From positions 372,001 to 436,000 of the forward strand of contig CDPCPM010000017.1 in NCBI GenBank assembly GCA_976551045.1: 64,000 nt of DNA, in the 5' to 3' direction. Under the pieces are notes generated by a model that worked only from the letters and a program-made list of their open reading frames with translations, was not told the DNA's origin and did not search any database. Positions 6,120 to 57,887 of the stretch are shown here, piece by piece; positions within the stretch are counted from its first letter, which is position 1, and every line of letters begins with the position of its first letter. This stretch comes from Glaucostegus cemiculus (taxonomy: Eukaryota). The position numbers were made by a program, and so were the translations under genes.

Positions 6120-7000
6120 TATAGAACATTACAGCACAGTACAGGCCCTTCGGCCCACAATGTTGTGCCAACATTTTATCCTGCTCTAAGATCTATCTAA
6201 CCCTTCCCTACTGCATAGCCCCCCATTTCTCTATCACTCATGTGTCTATCTAAGCGTCTCTTAAATGTCCCTGATGTATCTGCCCCCACAACCTCAGCTG
6301 GCAGTGTGTTCCATGCACCCACCACTCTCTGTGTAAAAAACTTACCTCTGACATCCCCTAAATATCTTCCTCCAGTCACCTTAAAATTATGTCCCCTCGT
6401 GTTAGCCATTTTCGCCCTGGGAAAAAGTCTCTGACTGTCCACTCGATCAATGCCTCTTATCATCTTGTACATCTCTAATCCTCTTTCTCTCTAATAGAAA
6501 CATAGAAAAACTACAGCACAATTCAGGCCCTTTGGCCCAAAAAGCTGTGCCGAGCATGTCCTTACCCTAGAAGTTACAATGAGAAAAGCCCTAGCTCACT
6601 CAACCTATCCTCATAAGACAAAAAGAGTCCAGCTGGGATACAGTACATACGTACAAACTTAGACATATTATATTCAGTTCTGTCATCAAAGTCAATGATA
6701 CATAGAAATACAGAGCACAGAAAAGAGCCTTTCAGCCACCTCATCCATGCCAACCTTGATGCCTATCTATACTAATCCCATTTGTCCACATTGGGCCCAT
6801 ATCCCTCTCTGCCTTTCCTATTCAGGCACCTGTCCAAACATTTTTTAAAAGTTGTGATTATATCTGCCTCCACCACCTTCCCTGGCAGCTTGTTCCAGAT
6901 ATTCACCACCCTCTGTGTGGAAGGCTTGCCCCTCATATCACCTTTAAATTTCTCCTCTCTCCTCTTAAATCTGTGCCCTCTAGTTCTGGACTTTACTGTA
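6120..7000 (-). mobile_element. Cluster of CR1 LINE 3' ends
   Basis: ORF 6197-6472 YKMIRGIDRVDSQRLFP..TRGHNFKV..FFTQRVVGAWNTLP; further tails start at ~6495 and ~6700. Confidence 0.85.
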
Positions 7001-7059
7001 CTGAGAGAAGACTCTATCTTACCAAAAAATTCAAAATATTTGCAGCTGACATATTATGT

Positions 7060-7820
7060 TCTTACAATGGAAGGAGTGCAACAAAGGTTCACCAGATTGT
7101 TTCCTGGATGATAGGTTTGTCATGGGAGGAGCAACTAAGCAGATCAGGCCTGTGCTCACTGGAGTAACAAACAAGAAGCTGGAGGAACTCAGCGGGTCAG
7201 GCAGCATCTGTGGAAGGAAATGGACAGTCGACATTCTGGATCGAGACCCTTCATCTGGACTGAAAGATAGAGGGGAGATAGTATCAGGAGGTGAGGGGAA
7301 GGGGTGGAGCTAGATGGAGACCCAAGAGACTGCAGATGCTGGAATCTAGAGCAACAAATGAGAAGCTGGAGAAGGTGGCAGGTCAGGCAGCATCTTTGAA
7401 GGGAAGCATCTGTGGAGAGCAGATTAGGCCTGTGCTCTCGAGTTCAGAAGATTGAGAAGCGATCACATTGAAGCACACAATATTCTTACAGGTTCGGCAG
7501 GGCAGAAGCAAGAATGATGTTTCTCTTGGTCAAGGTGTCTGGAACCAGAGGTCACAATATCAAAGGAAGGAATTGGCCGTTTGAGACAGAGATATAGAGC
7601 ACTTTCTTCAGAGGTTGACAAATCTTTTGAATTCTCGACCCAGAAGGGCCACAAAGGCTCAGTCGCTGAGTATATTCAACACAGAGATCAACACATGTTT
7701 AAATCAAGTGACATTGAGTAAATGCAGTGAAATGGCAGAGAGGAAAAAGATCAGCCACAACTTTCATAGACGGTGGAGCAGGCATGAGGGGCTAAATGGC
7801 CAAATCCTACTTCTATTTCT
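7060..7820 (+). mobile_element. Old CR1 LINE 3' fragment interrupted by a Penelope-terminus insert
   Basis: MEGVQQRFTRLFPG motif; the CR1 sequence resumes at 7418. Confidence 0.75.
7161..7417 (-). mobile_element. Tandem partial Penelope termini with hammerhead-like motif, flanked by a ~20-bp duplication
   Basis: agcagatcaggcctgtgctc (7138-7157) vs agcagattaggcctgtgctc (7418-7437); minus strand 7262-7225 reads CAGTC-CAGATGA-AGGGTCTCGATCC-AGAA-TGTC-GACTG. Confidence 0.75.
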
Positions 7821-12970: not shown

Positions 12971-13464
12971 CAAACCTTTGAACAGACACAACAGATAATA
13001 TAATCCCATTATTATGCCTAGTCACTTGACTGACATTGTTTGGGAATTTGCCATTTATGCATATATCTTGATATTCTGCTCATTGCACTCTCGCCTTTGA
13101 GTCAGAAGCTATTCCTGCTCTAAATCTTGCTTTGCTCCCTCATGAAGACATTCCCATTGGCATCATGAATCTTTCAACACCTTCCATCACTTTAGTGGGT
13201 TCCTAACCCTAACTATCTCCTCTTTACTACAAATGTCCAATCCCTATATATCTTCATTCCTCACCACTGTGTCACCCAGGCCTTTTGTTTCTCCCTTGAA
13301 TAGAGGCCAGCCAGTCTCTCTCCATTATCACCTTTCCCTGCCCGACTGAAAGTGAACTAATTCTCCTTTGACTCCTCGTCCTTATCTAGATAAGAGTTGT
13401 GAAGGAAAAATGTTTGAAACTATTTATGTTCTACGGGAAGGAAATTCAGGCAACAATGCTACAG

Positions 13465-13670
13465 GCAGGGAAACGTTCAGCAAGTCAGGCAGCATCTGTG
13501 GAAAGAGAAACAAAGTTAACTTTATAGGTCAAAGACCCTTAAGCCAATTTTGATAAAAGGTCATCAACATGAAATGTTCACCCTGTTCCTCTTTCCACAG
13601 TTGCTGCTTAATCTGAGTGTTTCCAGAAATTTCTGATTTTATTTCAGATTTCCACCATCTGCTGTTTTGG
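13465..13670. mobile_element. Head-to-head inverted pair of Penelope termini (palindromic element)
   Basis: Left arm ggcagcatctgtggaaagagaaacaaagttaac is the reverse complement of right arm gttcaccctgttcctctttccacagttgctgc; centre at ~13545. Confidence 0.75.
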
Positions 13671-13829
13671 GATTTTCAATGCTACATCCCTCTCTGTCAC
13701 CTAACCTGCACCTTGCCAAAACTTTTGGTGTGTTTGTTAGTGCATTTCCCAGTAGTTAGGATAAGGCTTTTGTTTATGGAAATATTTTCACCTGTGCATC
13801 ATTTCACATGACAAGGACGATGAACGTAT

Positions 13830-24522: not shown

Positions 24523-24689
24523 GGACGTTTTGCTAGTAATTCTATCCATGTTACTTGACGTAGAGAACAGCAGCACAAAACGGTTCTCCAGACCCTGCGG
24601 GAATATTTCATATTGGCCTGCTTTCTCCAGAATGGAAAAACGCTTAAGGCAAGTCTTGTGGCTGCTGGAGGTCTGAAAAAAAGAACAGA

Positions 24690-25970
24690 GAGAACTTTAA
24701 ATCTGGCAGCACTTGTGGAATAAGAAACAGAGTGGATGCTTCAGGTCGATGACCTTTCCTCAGAACTGGGAGCAGTGAGAGATGAAACCGGTTTTAAGAT
24801 GCAAAGAACTTGGGCAGGAAGGAGAGAACAAAAGGAGACACTTGTGATGAGGCGATTTATTGAAAAAAGGAATAAAAATGTAAGGAGAATATAAGGGGCA
24901 AAACTTCACTCTGGAGCAGTAAAATGGGAGAAGCAGAATAATGGGCGGCACGATAGTGTAGCGGTTAGCGCGACGCTGTTACAGCGCCAGCGATCGGGGT
25001 TCGATTCCCTTCACTGACTATAAGGAGTTTGTACGTTCTCCTGTGTCTGCGTGGGTTTCCTCCGGGTGCTCCGGTTTCCTCCCACATTGTAAAATACGTA
25101 CGGGTAGGTTAATTTGGGGGTTTAAAATGGGCTGCGTAGACTCGTTGGGCCAAAAGGGCCTGTTACCACGCTGTAAATAAAAAAAAATTATCTGAAAAAA
25201 ATGAACAGAAATCTAAAACTGTGTTGTGTTTTCAAGGCTATTACGAGCACTGTTGGAGGTGAGATGTGTCTCAAGTTTACATTGAGATCGATTTGAATAG
25301 GGCAGGGAGGCAAGGACACAGAGGTCAGAGTGGGAGTAGGGTGAAGAATTAAAATGACAGATGACTGGAAAGTCAGGGTTGCCCTTGTGGGCTGAATGGA
25401 GGTATTCTGCAAAGTGGTCACTCATCCTCTTGGAACAGTAAATGCAGCACACTAAAATGTAAGGAATACAAGTAATTTGCTGCTCCACCAGGAGATTGTG
25501 TTAGGGGACCTGGAGGTGGAAAAGGAGAATGTCAGTGGCCTTGTTTTGAATCTCCTGGTGCCAGAGAAAGCAAAGTGAGTATTGGAAGAGCTGGACCCAT
25601 GTCTGGGATGGAATGGTCCCTCTGAATGCTGAAGAGTGGAGAGGGGAAGATGGCATCATGATGGAGATACTGGAAATGAAGAGGATGACCTGATGAATGA
25701 TGTGGAGGTTGGAAGGATGGAAGGCAATGACAAGGGGTACCCTCTCCTGGTTCAGGGCAGGAAGAGAAAGGATGCGAGCCAAAGTGCAGGGAATATAATG
25801 GGTACAATGGAGAATCCTGTTGTCTACAATGGAGGGGTATCCACTCTTGAGCAAAAAGGAATTTTACGTGGAAGCATACTTTTGGAAGGTGGTATTGCTA
25901 GAAGAGATCCAATAGAGTTGGAGAATGTGATGGGGTACTTAAAGGCAGGGTGGGATAAAGTGGCCTTTTG
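24690..25970 (-). mobile_element. Penelope-like element remnant (post-RT linker, GIY-YIG C-terminus, 3' terminus with hammerhead motif), split by a SINE
   Basis: ERVPLVIAFHPSNLHI (ORF 25501-25854); DHFAEYL..PDFPVICHFNSSPYSHSDLCVL..CKLE (ORF 25213-25488); minus 24768-24731 reads CAGTT-CTGAGGA-A-AGGTC-ATC-GACCT-GAAG-CATC. Confidence 0.85.
24943..25187 (+). mobile_element. Young full-length tRNA-derived V-SINE with CR1-like tail
   Basis: A box TAGTGTAGCGG, B box GGTTCGATTCC (24998-25008), V-domain gcgtgggtttcctccgggtgctccggtttcctcccaca, tail gggccaaaagggcctgtt..ctgta plus poly(A); CpGs intact. Confidence 0.9.
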
Positions 25971-26119
25971 ATGGATAATGTTAGTTTGCTTTTCCACTGA
26001 AGGGGAGATCATGAGGCTGTGTCTTTAGGGTCCTTTTGCTTCCTACACTTTAAGTAAAGTGTTCCCGGTCAGAGGCAGGTCTGAGGTGAGTGAATCACTT
26101 TTGCATGGTCCTGGACTGG

Positions 26120-27640
26120 CTACAGAGTCATAGAGTTATACAGCGTGGAAACAGGCCCTTCGGTCCAACTCATCTATGCCAATCAAGTTGTCTGCCCGAG
26201 CTATTCACATTTGCCTGCGTTTGGCCCATATCCCTCTAAACCATTCCCCTACATGTACCTGTCTAAATGTTTTTTAAGCTTTATAATTGCACCCACCCCT
26301 ACAACTTCCTCTGGCAGCTCGTTCCATGTACCCAACACCCTATCTGTGGAAAAACTTGCCCTTTAGGTCCCCTTTAACTTTTTCCCCTCTCACAAACCTA
26401 TCCCCTACTTGGGGATAAAAACAAGACTGTTACCATTCACCTTATCCATGCCCCTCATGATTTTATATATCTCTAAAAGGCCACCCCTTAGCCTCCTATA
26501 TTATTGGGGAAAAAGTCCCAGTCTATCCAACCTCTCCTTCTAAATCAACCTCTCCAGTCCTGGTAACAACCTCATGAATCCTTTCCACCTTAATAACATC
26601 TTTCTGGCAGCTGAGCAACTAGAACTGCACACAATACTCCAACTGTAGTCTCACCAATGACTTGTACAGTTGCAGCATGGCATCCCAACTCCTGTACTCA
26701 GTACCCTGACCAATGAAGGCAAGCATGCCAAATGCCTTCTTCACCACCCTGTCTACCTATGTCTCCACTTTCATAGGTCTCTCTGTTCTCGGCCCCGCCA
26801 TTTACTGTGTAAGTCCTTCTCTGGTTTAACTTACCAAAGTGCAACACCTCACCCTCGTCTGAGTTAAATTCCACCTGCCATTCTTTGACCCACTTCCCCA
26901 GTTGGTCTAGATCCCATTGTAATCTTGGATAACCCTCTTCAATGTCCACCATACCACCAATTTTGGTGTCAGCCACACACTTTCCAACCATGCTAATTAC
27001 ATTCTCACCCAAATCGTCAATATAAACGATGAAGAACAGTGGGCCCAGCACTGATCCTTACGGCACACACCATTGGTCAGAGGCCTCCAATTTGAAAAAC
27101 AATCCTCCACCCCTGTGCTACAAACCTCTGACTCCTTCCACCTAAACAATCTTGTATCCAGTGGCTAGCTCACTCTGATCTAATCTTCCAGACTAGCCTA
27201 CTATGCTGTACTTTGTCAAATGCCTTCCTGAAGTCTTGTTGACAACATCCACTGCCCTGCTTTTGTCAATCCTCTTCATCACCTCTTCAAAAAACTCAAA
27301 TTTGTGAGACACGATTTCCCAAGTACAAAGCCACGTTGACTATTACTGTCATTCCTTGCCCTTCCAAATGCTGGTAGATTCTGTCCCTCAGGATTCCCTC
27401 CAGTAACGTACCCACCACTGATGTTCGGCTCATTGGCCTTAGTTCCCTGACTTGTCCATTCAACCCTTTTTAAATAAAGGCACAACATTTACCACCCTCT
27501 AGTCTTCCAGTACCTCACCCGTCACTAAAGATGATGCAAATATCTCTGCTGAGGCCCCTGTAATTTCTTCCCTCGCTTCCCACAATGTCCTGGGATACAT
27601 TTATTCAGGCCCTGGGGATTTATTCACCTTACTCTGCTTT
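26120..27640 (-). mobile_element. CR1 LINE RT domain to 3' end (decayed)
   Basis: SQRGFVLGKSCLTNL (ORF 27279-27488); LGPLFFIVYIDDL..VADTKIGG..WQVEFN (ORF 26698-27051). Confidence 0.9.
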
Positions 27641-27819: not shown

Positions 27820-28557
27820 CACAAGATCACAAGATCACAAGACAATGGAGCAGAAGCAGGCCAGTCGGCCCATCGAGTCTGCTCCAAAGGGAAGGGAAGG
27901 TGGGGGGGGGGGGAAAGAAAAAAAAAAACAAAAAAAAAACCCACCTACTATTCTAAGTCCAAATCCCTGCCTTATCTCCATATCCCCTGATACCTTGACC
28001 AATTAGATATCTATCTATTTCCTTCTTGAATATCCCCAATGATCTGGCTTCCACTGCTCTCTGTGGTAAGGAGTTCCACAGGTTCACCACCCTCTGGCTA
28101 AAGAAATTCCTCCTTATCTCTGTTATGAACCTGCTTCTTCTAATTCTAAGTTTGTGTCCTCTAGTCCTGGATTCCCCCACCAAGGGAAACAGCTTGACCA
28201 CATTCACTTGGTCCATTCCTTTCAACATCCTGTACGTTTCTATTAGGTCCCCTCTCATTCTTCTGTACTCCAACGAGTACAGTCCAAGTGACGACAGTCG
28301 CTCGTCATATGTAAACTTTTTCATCCCAGGAATCATCCTAGTAAATCTCCTCTGAACCCTCTCCAACATCAGCACATCCTTCCTAAGGTATGGGGCCCAA
28401 AACTGCACACAGTACTCCAAGTGAGGCCTCACCAGTGCCCCATATAGCCTCATCAACACTTCCTTGCTTTTATATACTATACCCCTCGAAATAAATGCCA
28501 ACATAGCATTCGCTTTCCTTACTGCCGATCCAACCTGGCGGGTATCATTTATGGTAT
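27820..28557 (-). mobile_element. Young 5'-truncated CR1 LINE with open ORF2 C-terminus and 10-bp TSD
   Basis: ORF 27953-28594 [43 protein letters not shown]; (ATCTTGTG)-type tandem tail; CATTATTTAT at 27810-27819 and 28558-28567. Confidence 0.92.
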
Positions 28558-28689
28558 CATTATTTATGATATCACTGTTTGCTAGATTGTGCAATGTCTT
28601 ATATTTGGGCTGGCATGTTTTGACTAATTTTTAGTCCCAAACCATCCCTACCTCCTGACACCTTAAACATTTCCACTGCCCCAAAGGCA

Positions 28690-33285: not shown

Positions 33286-33540
33286 CCAAAGAGGATTTGA
33301 ACACAAGAGTGGGGATGTCCTGCCCCAATTATATGGAGCACTGGTGAAACCTTGCCTGGAATATTTTGTACATACTGTAGAAAGGATATACTTGTGATAG
33401 ATGGAGTTCAGAAAAGGTTTGCCTGTTTGGTTCATGGGCTGGCGGGTTGTGATATGAAGAGAGATTAAGTAGACTAGGTCTGTACTCTTTTCAGTTTAGA
33501 AGAATGAGAGGTGACCTCATTAAAACATTCAAAATTCTGA

Positions 33541-43219: not shown

Positions 43220-45220
43220 AGACAGTAAAAGTTCAGAGTCAGCATGTCCTGAAAGGTAAGGAGCAAAGTTGTAAGATTAGGGAAATTTGGTTAACAAAAG
43301 AAATTGGAGGTTTGATCAGAAACAAGAAGGGAGCATATGTCAAATGTAGACATTTGGTATCGAGTGAGTCCTTTGAGGCTTATAAGGGCTGTAGGTGAAA
43401 AGTAAGAAATTAGGAGGGGCAAAAAGGGGCTATGAAATTAACTTGGTAAGTAGGACGAAGGAGAATCCTAAAACACTTTATAAGTATAATTGAAGCAAGA
43501 AAGTAGGTAAAGAAGGAATAGATCCCCGCAGGGAGCAGAGGGATAATTTATATGTGAAGTCAGGGGCTATGAACAAGATCCTTAATGATCCTCATTATTC
43601 ACCAGGGAGAAGGACGAGGGGCTGGAGAGTTAAGGGAAGAGGTACATTGATACTCTGGAACATGTCTGTGTTAGGATGGAGGAAGTGTTAGAGATATTGG
43701 CACACATCAATTCCTAGGGCCTGATGGGATCTATTCCAGGTTGCTATGGGAAGCAGGGAAAGGAGATTGCTGGGGCTCTAATGGGGATTTTTGCATCTTT
43801 GCTAGTGACAGGTGAGGTACCAGAAGACTGGAGGATAGCTGGTGTCGTTCCCTTATTCGAAAAGGGCAGTAGGGATAAGCAAGGAAACTACAGGCAGCGA
43901 CCCTTCCATCAGTAGCAGAGAAATTATTGGAACAAATTCCAAGGGATAGGATTTATGTTTAGTTGGAAAGGCGGGGAGTGATTAGGAGTCAGCATGGTTT
44001 TGTGTGGGGAAAATCCTGCCTCATAAATCTGATTGGGATTTTTGGGGAAGTAACTAAGAAACGTGTTGAAGGCAGGGCAGTAGATCTAGCTTCTATGGAC
44101 CATAGCAAGGCCTTTGACTAAGTCCCACACAGTAGGCTGGTCTGGAAAGCTAGGGAACTTGGAATATAAGATGTGTTAGCAAACTGGATCCAAAATTGAC
44201 TTGGTGGAAGGAGGGAAAGGGTCATGGTTGAAGAGTGTTTTCTGACAGGAATTCTGTAACCAGTGGCATTCCACAGGGATTGGTGCTGGGATCTTTGTTA
44301 TTTGTTTTCTACGACTTGGATAAGAATGTGAATGATTAGTCTTGACAACACAAAAATTGGTGGAGTAATAGATGGCAGAAAAGGTTGTGAAAGGATACAG
44401 GTGGGCATAGATCAGTTGGAAAGTTGGGTAACAGATGGAATTTAACCCAGACAAGGGTGAGGTAATGCACTTTAGGACATTAAATACTAAAAGGACATGT
44501 ATAGTAAATAATAGGCACATCGAAAGTGTTGATGTACAGAGGGACTTTGGAGTTCAAGTTCATAGCTCCCTGAAGATGGTGACACAGGTGGCTAGGGTTG
44601 TGAAAAAGGCATTCAGCACACTTGTCTCTTAGGCTGAGGCTTTGTGTATAAAAGTTCTGATGTCAGAATGCAGCACAATGCAAACATTGGCCAAGCCACA
44701 CTTGAAGTATTGTGTACAGTTCTGGTTACCATACTACAGGAAGGATGTTGCAGTATTAGAAAGAGTGCAGAAGAGATTCACCGACCTGGGATGGTGGGCT
44801 TTACTTATGAGGAGTGATTGGATAGGCTGGGTTTATTCTCACTTAAATGTTAGATGCTGAGGGGTGACCTATTAAATATTTATAAAATTATGAGGGGCAT
44901 AAATAGAGTAGAGAATCAGAATATTTCTCCTGGGGTAGGGGAGTCTAAAACTAGAGGGCATCGGCATAAGGTGAGAGTGCAGAAATTTAAAGAGATCTGA
45001 GAGGAAGGTTTTTCACACAGAGGGTGGTGTTTATATGGAATGAGCTACCAAAGGAAGTGGTAGAGGCAGGTACAATTACAATGCTTGAGTGGCATTTTGA
45101 CAGATACTTGGATAGGAAAGGAGTAGAGGGATATGGGCCCAATGTGGGCAAATGGAATTAGTGTAGATAGGCCACGTGATCAGCATAGTCAAGTTCGGCC
45201 AATGGGACTGTTTCCATGCC
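43220..45220 (+). mobile_element. CR1 LINE ORF2 (RT domain to 3' end), pseudogenised
   Basis: TGEVPEDWRIAGVVPLFEKG..GNYR; SQHGF..KSCL; MEFNPDKGEVMHF; [10 protein letters not shown]; CR1 tail. Confidence 0.92.
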
Positions 45221-50762: not shown

Positions 50763-51659
50763 AGGTTTTCATCCCCTATTTGACTCTGGACCTGTACTCA
50801 TTTTCCAGAGCCTTACGTTATGATGTTTTTAAGGGGATCTAAGACTTCTGTGAGCAGGTCAAACAGCAAGAAGACTTTTCAATTAAACTGATTACACTTA
50901 CTGAAACACTCAGACCACAGAGTATTTCCTTTTCAGCCACTTGTGCTGCCATGTATAATATTTACAACATCTAAAATTGACAAATTCACCAATATTTTCT
51001 TGTTTTGCTTTTTGTCCAATGTTTCACCACACATGCTGCCACCTGTTGGTCATCCAACATTTCCAACCTAGCTCTGGAAGGTTCCACAGGTTTGTGTGTC
51101 CGTACGCACTTTTCTAGAGTTAACTTTCTCATGCAATGACTGCTTCCTTCCTCTACACTCCCAAATTCCACAATATTCCAATCCCTGATGGCGAGTCCTT
51201 CAAATCAGCGAAACTGCAATTATCTGCCCATAATCTTAGCTCTGTTAAGAAGTTATCAAAGGATTCTCTCTGCTCCTGGTTGTGACGAAAGAATTGCTAA
51301 AGGTTAACTGTCACATTTCTAGACAGTTTGCAAAGTGTTTGTGATGCCTCCAATGCATTCCATATGTTCTAATTTGAGGGCTTTATGAAATCACTGTTGG
51401 ATCTGAAATCGGATAGTGGTGGGGGAGGTAGGGCTGATTGAATGTCCGGAGCCTTATGTTGAGCAACATATATAGCACAAAAGACATTGTGCACGACACT
51501 TGGCTCAACATTATTAATATCCTCCTTAAAAAGAAATAACTGGGAGCTTTAATTATCAAGTATTACACCATTTTAACCCAATTTTCCTTGATTGCCCAAC
51601 TTTTTTTTGCCTGATTTTAGGATGAAAGTCACGAATAATTAAGAAAAAAAAAGAGAAAG

Positions 51660-51940: not shown

Positions 51941-52449
51941 TTTCCATTATCCTAAATTAATACCATATTGATTTCTTGTGCTCTTTCCTTTGCTGAATGT
52001 TGTAGCAGTGGAGGATATCACTGCTGGATTTTGCACTTTAACCACACATGAGCAGAGGTCTGAGGTTAACGTCAGTATTACTGACACTACAAAATCTGGC
52101 CCATTATTTCTGTTTCAATAACTGACTTTGATAATGTATTCCACATCAAAATGTCTTGCTAGTTGCATTTTAGCTGGTATTTATTTGCTCCTCATACTAA
52201 AGTCTGAAAACAGTTGGAAAATCCTGTTTCTATCTACTTCCCTTCTTCATAAGCCCCATCTCCACGACCAAATCATCCTCTTCTCTCCTCCGTACTAATT
52301 AGATTTGTCCCAGTTTTTCAGGTCCTTTATTGCATCTGTATTTCAAAGACTACCTCAGTGAATCTATATCCCTTCTCTTGCCATAATATCCTTCCAGTAG
52401 GTTGCAGCCTAAAATGCCATTCAATCCCCCACATACTCCAATTATCTGG

Positions 52450-52727
52450 AGACACAAGCGACTACAGATACTGGAATCTGGGGCAACACACAAGATGCTG
52501 GAGGAACTCAGAAGGTCAGGCAGCATCCGTGGAGGGAAATGGACAGTCATGTTTCAGGTTGAAACCCTTCATTTGGACTGACTTAAGGATGACATTGGTG
52601 AATAATTAAGAATAAGTAAAAGTTTTGCCCGATGAAGGGTCTCAACCAAAAAACGTCTTCTCTCCATTTCCCTCCACAGATGCCACCTGAACTGCTGAAT
52701 TCCTCCAGCATCTTTTTTGTTGCTCCT
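52450..52727. mobile_element. Head-to-head inverted pair of Penelope termini with hammerhead-like cores
   Basis: gatgctggaggaactcag..ggagggaaatgga (left arm) is the reverse complement of tccatttccctcca..ctgaattcctccagcatc (right arm); ~47-bp spacer. Confidence 0.8.
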
Positions 52728-53164
52728 AAAATTATCTGTTTACACAAATGCACCAGTGCATCATGACATATTATATTCTTTATCGTTTTCCATAATTATC
52801 CACTGAAATGATTCACTCTCATGCTTGTGGTAATTGGTATAAGCAAAATTAAGGAGAATCTCTTCTTCACGATCAGTTTGCCTCCATGGGGGAGAATTTC
52901 CTCCCTAATGAAATAATCAATCTATTTATGTCGAACACTGTGAGTCTGCTTCATATGGGGTCAGAGAAGAAACCTTCACCCATGTTTGTATTTGTTTGTC
53001 CTTTTGATTTTAGCCAGGAACTTCAAAAAAATAAGTTACCTCCAGGAGCAGATGCTCTTGAAATAAGGCTGTGAATGACACGTTATAACTGAGTTCTTCA
53101 ATAATATTCATTTACATCTGTGTATACATTGTTTTTGCAATTACATCAGCCTGTAAACATAATA

Positions 53165-56615: not shown

Positions 56616-56757
56616 ACATCAAGCTAACTTCCTATAATTCCTTATTTTTCACTCTCTCTTAAATAGTGGTGGCACACTTTCTATCTTTCAACCTACTGCA
56701 GCTATCACGGGACCCAGGGAATTTTGTAAGATCAACACTAATAGATTTTCTAGACCC

Positions 56758-57887
56758 GCAAGACGGGACACCATGCTCAAGTCCCTGGACAATGGGGGTA
56801 AAGGTGTCCCCAGTGTCACCCTCATCCTGACGACCACCTTCGTCTGTGGCTGCATCAGGTGGTACGTGGAACCCAAGTACATCGGCACCAAGTGTCACTA
56901 CGTGCTGAGGTTCTACTTGTCCCTGCTGTTACGAAGGATGGGCCTGGCCCAGTGGCCACACAGTGTCCCGGTCAGCTGGACGCTGCCACACTACCTGTCC
57001 TTCGTGGAAAAATTCTTCCAGACCAACACCTTTGACCACAAGTCCATCAGGCAGTGGTCAGCACGGAACATCCTGCAGGCACTGCAGGAGAAGGACATAA
57101 TGGATATGGTGGGGTGGTTCCCTGAGCAGATTGTCCAGGCCATCTGGCAGAAAGCCTCATCACCAGAACTCACCAACAAGCACCGAGACCTCGCTTGGCT
57201 GGCGGTGAGAGGGGCCCTCCCAGTCAGATCCCTCCTGTACAAGTGGAACCTCAGTCTCAGTGCGCGCTGCCCCCAGGAGGACTGCGTTGGGGACAAGACG
57301 GTAGCTCACCTCTTTGCAGACTGTAGGTTTGTGAGGAGGGTGTGGTGAAAGATGCAAAGGTCCTTGTCACAGTTCATCCCCAGCATCTGCGTAAAAGAGG
57401 ATTCCCTGATCTGTGGGCTGTTCCTGGGGACACACTCAGAGACGGACATCAACTGCTGCTGGAAGGTCATCAACTCGGTGAAAGACGCCCTTTGGTCTGC
57501 CCGGAACTTGTTGGTCTCCCAGCACCGTGAGAGGTCCATGGAGGAATGCTGCCGACTGGCACATTCCAAGTTGCAGGAGTACGTGCTGAGAGACGCACTG
57601 AAGCTGGGCACAGCCAACGCTAAGGCGCGGTGTGGAAGGGCCACAGTTTAGGGTTCTTGTGCCACAGGAGAGGGAGGGGTGGGGTCAGGTGAGGAAGCCC
57701 CTCAAATGTTGTAAATATGGGATTGGGGTATCACTTTAGGGAGCCACATGTGTGGCATCGGTGCTGTGTTTTGTACATGTAAAAAGGTAACACTAAGAAT
57801 GGAACTGTAATCGAATGTAAAAGGTTTGAACGGTTTTATTATTGTCTACAGTTTATTATGAATAAAGTTTATTTTGTTAATAAAAAC
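56758..57887 (+). mobile_element. 5'-truncated Tx1 (L1-clade) LINE with zf-RVT C-terminus and 13-bp TSD
   Basis: ORFs 56773-57348 and 57352-57651 share a frame separated by one TGA; DLAWLAVRGALPV, C-x4-C..HLFADC zinc finger; AATAAA and A-rich tail; ATTTTCTAGACCC at 56745-56757 and 57888-57900. Confidence 0.92.

Follow-up and report, generated by a model that had tools for sequence, protein, structure and literature searches.

The window, that is the whole stretch of 64,000 nucleotides analysed here, was rich in repeats, with about 41% GC and LINE-type ORF remnants. The decayed 3' part of a LINE, which we take to be of CR1 type, occupied 7040-7760 on the plus strand and was interrupted by an insert; a Pfam search with the ORF of a sister LINE (27953-28630) assigned no name. 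An abundant dispersed repeat, often joined to LINE 3' ends, was also observed at over 10 places in the window (among them 6701-6961, 26129-26564 and 44784-45219), and a zf-RVT remnant on the plus strand (56638-57651, Pfam E 5e-10) represented a non-LTR element unlike the CR1-like ones.

Two GC-rich copies of a target sequence flanked the insert on the plus strand, with cores at 7138-7157 and 7418-7437 (19 of 20 positions identical, spacing 280). Four pairs with at least 19/20 identity and 30-400 bp apart existed in the whole window, and 0 in five shuffled windows. Local alignment carried the duplication on to 7165 in the left copy (7138-7165) and to 7443 in the right copy (7418-7443), at the cost of a further substitution and a gap of 2 nt, and the sister LINE remnants had 8 nt between the duplication core and its continuation. 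The duplication was thus 20-28 bp long, 28 bp being the likely value, and the insert measured 260 bp (7158-7417) or 252 bp (7166-7417). Six nucleotides at 7159-7164 were common to the left duplication copy and the short end of the inserted element, while position 7165, T in the window, was C in 11,235 of 12,672 family reads from X21, a raw-read set from a related organism.

After removal of the insert together with one duplication copy, three further LINE remnants in the window (63463-63119, 28377-28003 and 33386-33538) aligned over the junction, each with a single copy of the duplicated sequence (eight matches in all, two of them self-matches); therefore the duplication belongs to the insertion. 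Sequence sets from relatives of the source species, sharing at most 0.12 of the words, were also compared, and 4 of the 24 listed read or contig sets (organisms A, A, B and C) were aligned at 80% likeness on 7000-7600. The right flank was matched by two contigs of related organisms at about 93-95%; there was no empty-site joint among the 15 of 989 joints listed, and no piece spanning the whole locus was found in these organisms.

The sense strand of the inserted element is the minus strand. Two units were arranged in tandem, 7159-7219 corresponding to 7346-7405 with 48 of 60 aligned positions identical (80%) and a spacing of 187. Unit 2 (7159-7314, minus) was a 5'-truncated Penelope-type terminus with a short, tail-less end, and its nearest paralog in the window was 52478-52581 (88/104 identical, 85%). 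It bore the hammerhead of the insert and, upstream of this motif, a pyrimidine-rich tract (7263-7314, minus), probably part of the 3' UTR of the element, with the truncation point at 7314. Unit 1 (7315-7405, minus; 73/91 identical to 52447-52538) was a shorter 5'-truncated terminus with the long end and without hammerhead, and carried a 31-nt tail (7315-7345) which was missing from unit 2. At the 5' junction, 12 nt of family sequence were copied again (7406-7417, minus, spacing 16), which may reflect a slip-back of 16 nt; this stutter was absent from the earlier note. The order on the element strand was duplication, stutter (7417-7406), unit 1 (7405-7315), unit 2 (7314-7159 or 7314-7166) and duplication. 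No poly(A) tail was present, neither RT nor endonuclease coding was found in the insert, and a phmmer search with its 50-aa open frame (7309-7160) matched 0 of 1.84 billion proteins at E<=0.001.

The earlier note had proposed a non-coding insert of about 257 bp, composed of two partial termini in tandem between roughly 20-bp duplications identical at 19 of 20 positions. The tandem termini, the duplication and the lack of coding sequence were all borne out; the size should be read as 260 or 252 bp.

In unit 2, a pyrimidine run ending in CAG was followed by an ATG (7207-7205) and the open frame MLPDPLSSSS on the minus strand (7219-7159). This looks like a 3' splice site with the first ORF codons, as in other Penelope pseudo-LTRs with an intron and ORF start. 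An equivalent of the ATG existed in 6 of 12 aligned terminus pieces, and the 7219-7159 stretch was the deepest part of the family in read depth.

The two ends could be read from the relatives. A joint from 7345 to 7159 was supported by 835 X21 reads, in which 7314-7159 ran on into the equivalent of 7345-7315, and the majority line of 7,084 loose ends gave the same 7345-7315 type of continuation. At 7315 itself, loose ends of 4,126 X21 reads led into heterogeneous, AT-rich and unrelated flanks (agreement 0.33). Therefore the insert consists of two unequal units, one tailed and one 31 nt shorter.

The hammerhead was confined to the lower unit (unit 2; 7225-7262, minus) and was of the minimal type I, in decayed form. 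Stem I (7262-7258/7229-7225) was paired at 5/5 positions and was followed by the core CAGAUGA (7257-7251) and an extra A (7250). Stem II (7249-7245/7242-7238), closed by a 2-nt loop, was also paired at 5/5 positions with one G-U, then came AGAA (7237-7234) and UGUC (7233-7230), placing the predicted cleavage site at 7230/7229. The letters and the folding scheme given for minus strand 7262-7225 by the earlier note were exact to the letter. Its proposed scan with hammerhead models gave less: in Rfam, 0 matches at E<=1 and no hammerhead were obtained for the whole window, and 7150-7420 gave no hammerhead and two irrelevant lncRNA matches at E<=10. A relaxed hammerhead descriptor did match the motif, at three mismatches and no fewer, and two of six shuffled windows also gave one match; the exact-consensus pattern had 0 matches within the window. 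The RNAfold z of the hammerhead 44-mer was 0.07, and longer folds lost the hammerhead. Taken by itself, the motif of this single copy is weak and near the chance level.

Core bases were changed at 3 of 11 positions in this copy (U4 to A, G12 to A and A13 to G), and the helix III palindrome was broken. U4 and A13 are, like G12, essential to hammerhead catalysis. G12 is the general base (PMC6155905), and because it is changed, the hammerhead of this copy is predicted to be inactive. From the complete pairing of both stems (10/10 pairs), which was better than in most copies of the window, one could suppose that the ribozyme is active and was retained because it serves the host, perhaps within an intron. 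Such a role is however highly improbable in view of the three changed core bases and the broken palindrome; besides, the folding was no better than that of shuffles, no second hammerhead of the same orientation was nearby, and no host gene was seen around the motif in the ORF list.

The family was represented in the window by 12 terminus pieces found with Blast and a profile, whose seeds were among these 12, against 0 in the reversed window. The hammerhead region existed in 11 of them, none with an intact core (0/11), unit 1 being the one row left out of the stem comparison for having no hammerhead region. In these 11 decayed copies, 37 of 55 cells of stem II and 32 of 54 cells of stem I were paired, values reached by 883 and 877 of 5000 shuffles, respectively. 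Two subfamilies differed by a C-G/U-A swap in stem I and by G-C/A-U in stem II, with pairing not above that of shuffles.

In the reads of the relatives, the family majority replaced C by T at 7236 (17,595 of 22,058, 80%), A by G at 7240 (15,439 of 21,261, 73%) and A by G at 7233 (11,763 of 22,202, 53%). The majority lines of the loose ends of all four sets read through GAAA, and the line of set X2 at 7229 (150 records, agreement 0.63) read through CUGAUGA. The family majority in relatives would therefore restore both GAAA and the CUGAUGA core, the letters at 7237 and 7256 being taken from loose-end lines and U4 from one line (X2, 150 records). The hammerhead was accepted as real because of this family majority, not because of the letters of this copy, and the consensus check for CUGANGA and GAAA suggested in the earlier note thus came out in its favour.

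The family was very abundant. Read depth in X21 (1,922 million letters) was about 80,100 at 7189-7209, about 23,300 over the hammerhead, about 1,400 at 7294-7314 and about 21,700 at 7315-7335, compared with 3-7 at the duplications. If a genome size of 2-5 Gb is assumed, the relative would possess 83,000-208,000 copies per genome of the 7189-7209 part and 24,000-61,000 hammerhead-bearing ones. At 7262, 4,430 X21 reads continued with another shared sequence (agreement 0.64), that is, with other subfamilies; the fall of depth on the upstream side of the hammerhead thus reflects divergence of subfamilies as well as truncation. No published description of this shark and ray terminus family was found in the literature; repeat databases and subscription papers lay outside the search, so it may well have been catalogued already. 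Pattern scans for further copies in metagenome, viral and genome contigs gave no match.

Minimal type I hammerheads are located in the pseudo-LTRs of metazoan EN+ Penelope-like elements (PMC4209133, Cervera and De la Pena 2014), and the consensus given there has a U-rich lead-in, CUGANGAH, a G..C stem II, GAAAN, a palindrome and NUH, without helix III. The family majority resembled it in the U-rich lead-in, the 5-bp stem I, CUGAUGA with an extra A, the stem II opened by G-C, GAAA, the CG palindrome and UC, and likewise in the occurrence of mainly single dispersed motifs with some close inverted pairs. It differed from the published motifs in the short stem II (5 bp, 2-nt loop), and this copy differed further in its mutated core. 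The part of the supplementary alignment of that paper covered here had no chondrichthyan row, and its searchable file gave 0 matches for shark, skate, Callorhinchus or Leucoraja. Penelope-like elements are known to have expanded in the whale shark (10.1101/443036).

An ORF-less mini-element specific to the species or lineage could also be imagined. It would be similar to a retrozyme, with a unit of about 187 nt and perhaps circular RNA as its template, and would owe its mobilisation in trans to a Penelope-like element; the insert would then represent 1.4 turns. The absence of an ORF, the target duplication and the head-to-tail order with 187-nt spacing all agree with this, and animal non-LTR retrozymes are comparable in being ORF-less, pseudo-LTR-derived and hammerhead-bearing, on a scale of 150-450 bp and with longer duplications (PMC7229834; 10.64898/2026.07.22.740005). 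As described in these sources, retrozymes derive from pseudo-LTRs, were found in one chondrichthyan with a mean of 363 bp (10.64898/2026.07.22.740005), and have duplications longer than 4 bp (PMC7229834); moreover, the sets compared here came from related organisms, the source species itself not being among them. By definition, however, retrozymes have two or more units in succession with a complete hammerhead in every one (10.64898/2026.07.22.740005; PMC7229834), and they consist of near-identical repeats giving monomer and circular RNAs, whereas the insert has one hammerhead, predicted to be dead and of minimal rather than canonical type, and two divergent pieces of different extent. The junction 7314/7315 was crossed by 0 of the 24 contig pieces listed (of 208,996) from three related organisms, and no second copy of it was found within the window. 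In fact, 17 of these 24 pieces stopped at 7303-7314, one plus-strand contig record (X4) extended past 7314 for 254 unlike letters, and the 4,126 reads ending at 7315 had unrelated flanks. Very short ORF-less inserts are also the usual outcome of 5' truncation, with a median of 128 bp for de novo insertions in Chlamys (PMC9977147).

The idea that the cleavage site set the unit ends was likewise rejected, since the site at 7230/7229 lies within unit 2, and unit 1 begins 10 nt downstream of its equivalent.

Taken together, an independent mini-element appears quite improbable, and the suggestion of the earlier note that a retrozyme-type non-autonomous element had moved as a unit found no support, given a single hammerhead, unequal units 80% alike and no listed piece crossing the junction. 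The insert is likely an ordinary relic of known kind and not a new mini-element; ORF-less hammerhead mini-families are themselves a kind already described.

A sister insertion of the same subfamily was identified at 52440-52738. It was an inverted head-to-head pair, with the long end on the minus strand (52449-52581), the short end on the plus strand (52628-52726) and 46 nt of spacer between them; a perfect AT-rich repeat of 9 bp stood on either side of the pair. The two kinds of end, long and short, with their difference of 31 nt, recurred here, and the short end had a 4-nt micro-homology with its target (52436-52439/52723-52726). Target duplications thus varied, from 20-28 bp at the insert to 9 bp at 52440/52730; at six other terminus loci in the window, flank matches of 6-7 nt, which is the chance level, were all that was seen. 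Part of the sister insertion (52567-52622) resembled 51600-51653 (75% over 56 nt) and was perhaps copied from nearby DNA. A second inverted pair, of another subfamily, existed at 13440-13690, with hammerheads back to back and no spacer; no clear target duplication was found there.

A decayed element of another subfamily (24665-25980, minus) consisted of an ORF remnant (25980-25216), a SINE-like interruption (about 25170-24950), a pyrimidine tract and a hammerhead terminus (24769-24665). The SINE-like repeat had at least six other copies in the window. Thumb-like and GIY-YIG-like motifs were recognised by eye in the ORF remnant, upstream of the related terminus and on the same strand, and a likeness to the HFNSPxHS motif that Penelope-type endonucleases carry (PMC8557442 supplement) was likewise noted by eye. 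Pfam, PDB, homolog, Atlas and viral searches with this remnant gave no RT or GIY-YIG match. The link of the present subfamily to a Penelope ORF would run through this remnant of another subfamily, as judged by eye.

Penelope-type insertions are characterised by partial tandems, by truncated copies in inverted orientation and by a tail of 30-40 bp that one end may carry (PMC8557442), the tail being 31 bp in PMC3846280. In vitro, a Penelope-like RT used two start sites, the tail equalling the distance between them, and uncleaved RNA was the main template; initiation needed no homology, and the anole enzyme had AT-rich targets (PMC11167929). The insert is similar to the Penelope, Poseidon and Neptune insertions in having a shorter truncated copy 5' of a longer one (PMC8557442, PMC3846280), and together with its sister it shares the 31-nt tail at one end only and the inverted head-to-head pairs described in the same sources. 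It also resembles the in vitro system in that its cDNA presumably passed through an uncleaved hammerhead (PMC11167929). Unlike the A. vaga insertions, which have duplications of 8-10 bp (PMC3846280), and the AT-rich targets of the anole system, its duplication is 20-28 bp long and GC-rich, with micro-homology at the primed end.

Most probably, the insert consists of two 5'-truncated tail ends of one very abundant family, written by an ordinary Penelope-like RT/GIY-YIG protein in one old, copy-specific, target-primed event with a template jump, and its hammerhead is predicted to be inactive. Two features are atypical for this explanation: the duplication is long and GC-rich, and there is micro-homology at the primed end. 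They would fit a repair patch, in which the LINE remnant suffered a staggered double-strand break and micro-homology-mediated end joining closed it with Penelope cDNA or RNA-templated DNA, the endonuclease of the element taking no part; the template jump, the 12-nt stutter and the 2-nt gap in the right duplication copy could be explained in the same way. A patch of this kind is nevertheless unlikely. Both 3' ends fall on the two end points of the family, long and short, as they do in the sister insertion with its clean 9-bp AT-rich duplication, and the duplication length of non-LTR and Penelope elements is variable anyway (PMC9977147).

In the target-primed event, staggered nicks 20-28 bp apart would have been made in the LINE remnant. 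Synthesis of cDNA would then have begun from the short start site, perhaps aided by the 6-nt micro-homology, and about 150 nt of uncleaved RNA may have been copied straight past the hammerhead site until the stop at 7314. The RT would next have switched to the start site of the long, tailed end, which lies 31 nt farther in the 3' direction and where 91 nt were presumably copied, and a slip-back of 16 nt would have preceded joining to the second nick. Decay followed the insertion, as is seen in the 3 of 11 changed core bases. In the parent element, by analogy with published systems, the hammerhead would be expected to dimerise by way of the ACGU palindrome, its cleavage being weak or assisted by protein (PMC4209133, PMC11167929). 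The broader claim of the earlier note, a retro-insertion of Penelope-type termini as a partial tandem with a duplication, is supported, and the family majority and the published consensus bear out the minimal type I hammerhead of the family.

Micro-homology with the target was present at each of the two short ends (6 nt and 4 nt), and it could be conceived that base-pairing over a short stretch between nicked target and RNA primes the tail-less Penelope ends but not the tailed ones, though this is a doubtful proposal at present. A literature search by titles and the beginnings of abstracts found nothing on point about micro-homology priming of such elements. If the pattern were general, the optional tail would distinguish two ways of priming in vivo, in contrast to the in vitro system, where initiation was free of homology; a family of this size, over 10,000 copies per genome, would allow both to be counted directly.

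The insert itself matters little, being a single decayed representative of an element type already known. As material, the family is of more value: its hammerhead-bearing termini number in the tens of thousands per genome in organisms that, judging from the repeat landscape, appear to be cartilaginous fishes. It would allow statistics on the tail, the duplication length, inversion and priming, which are open points of Penelope integration (PMC11167929).
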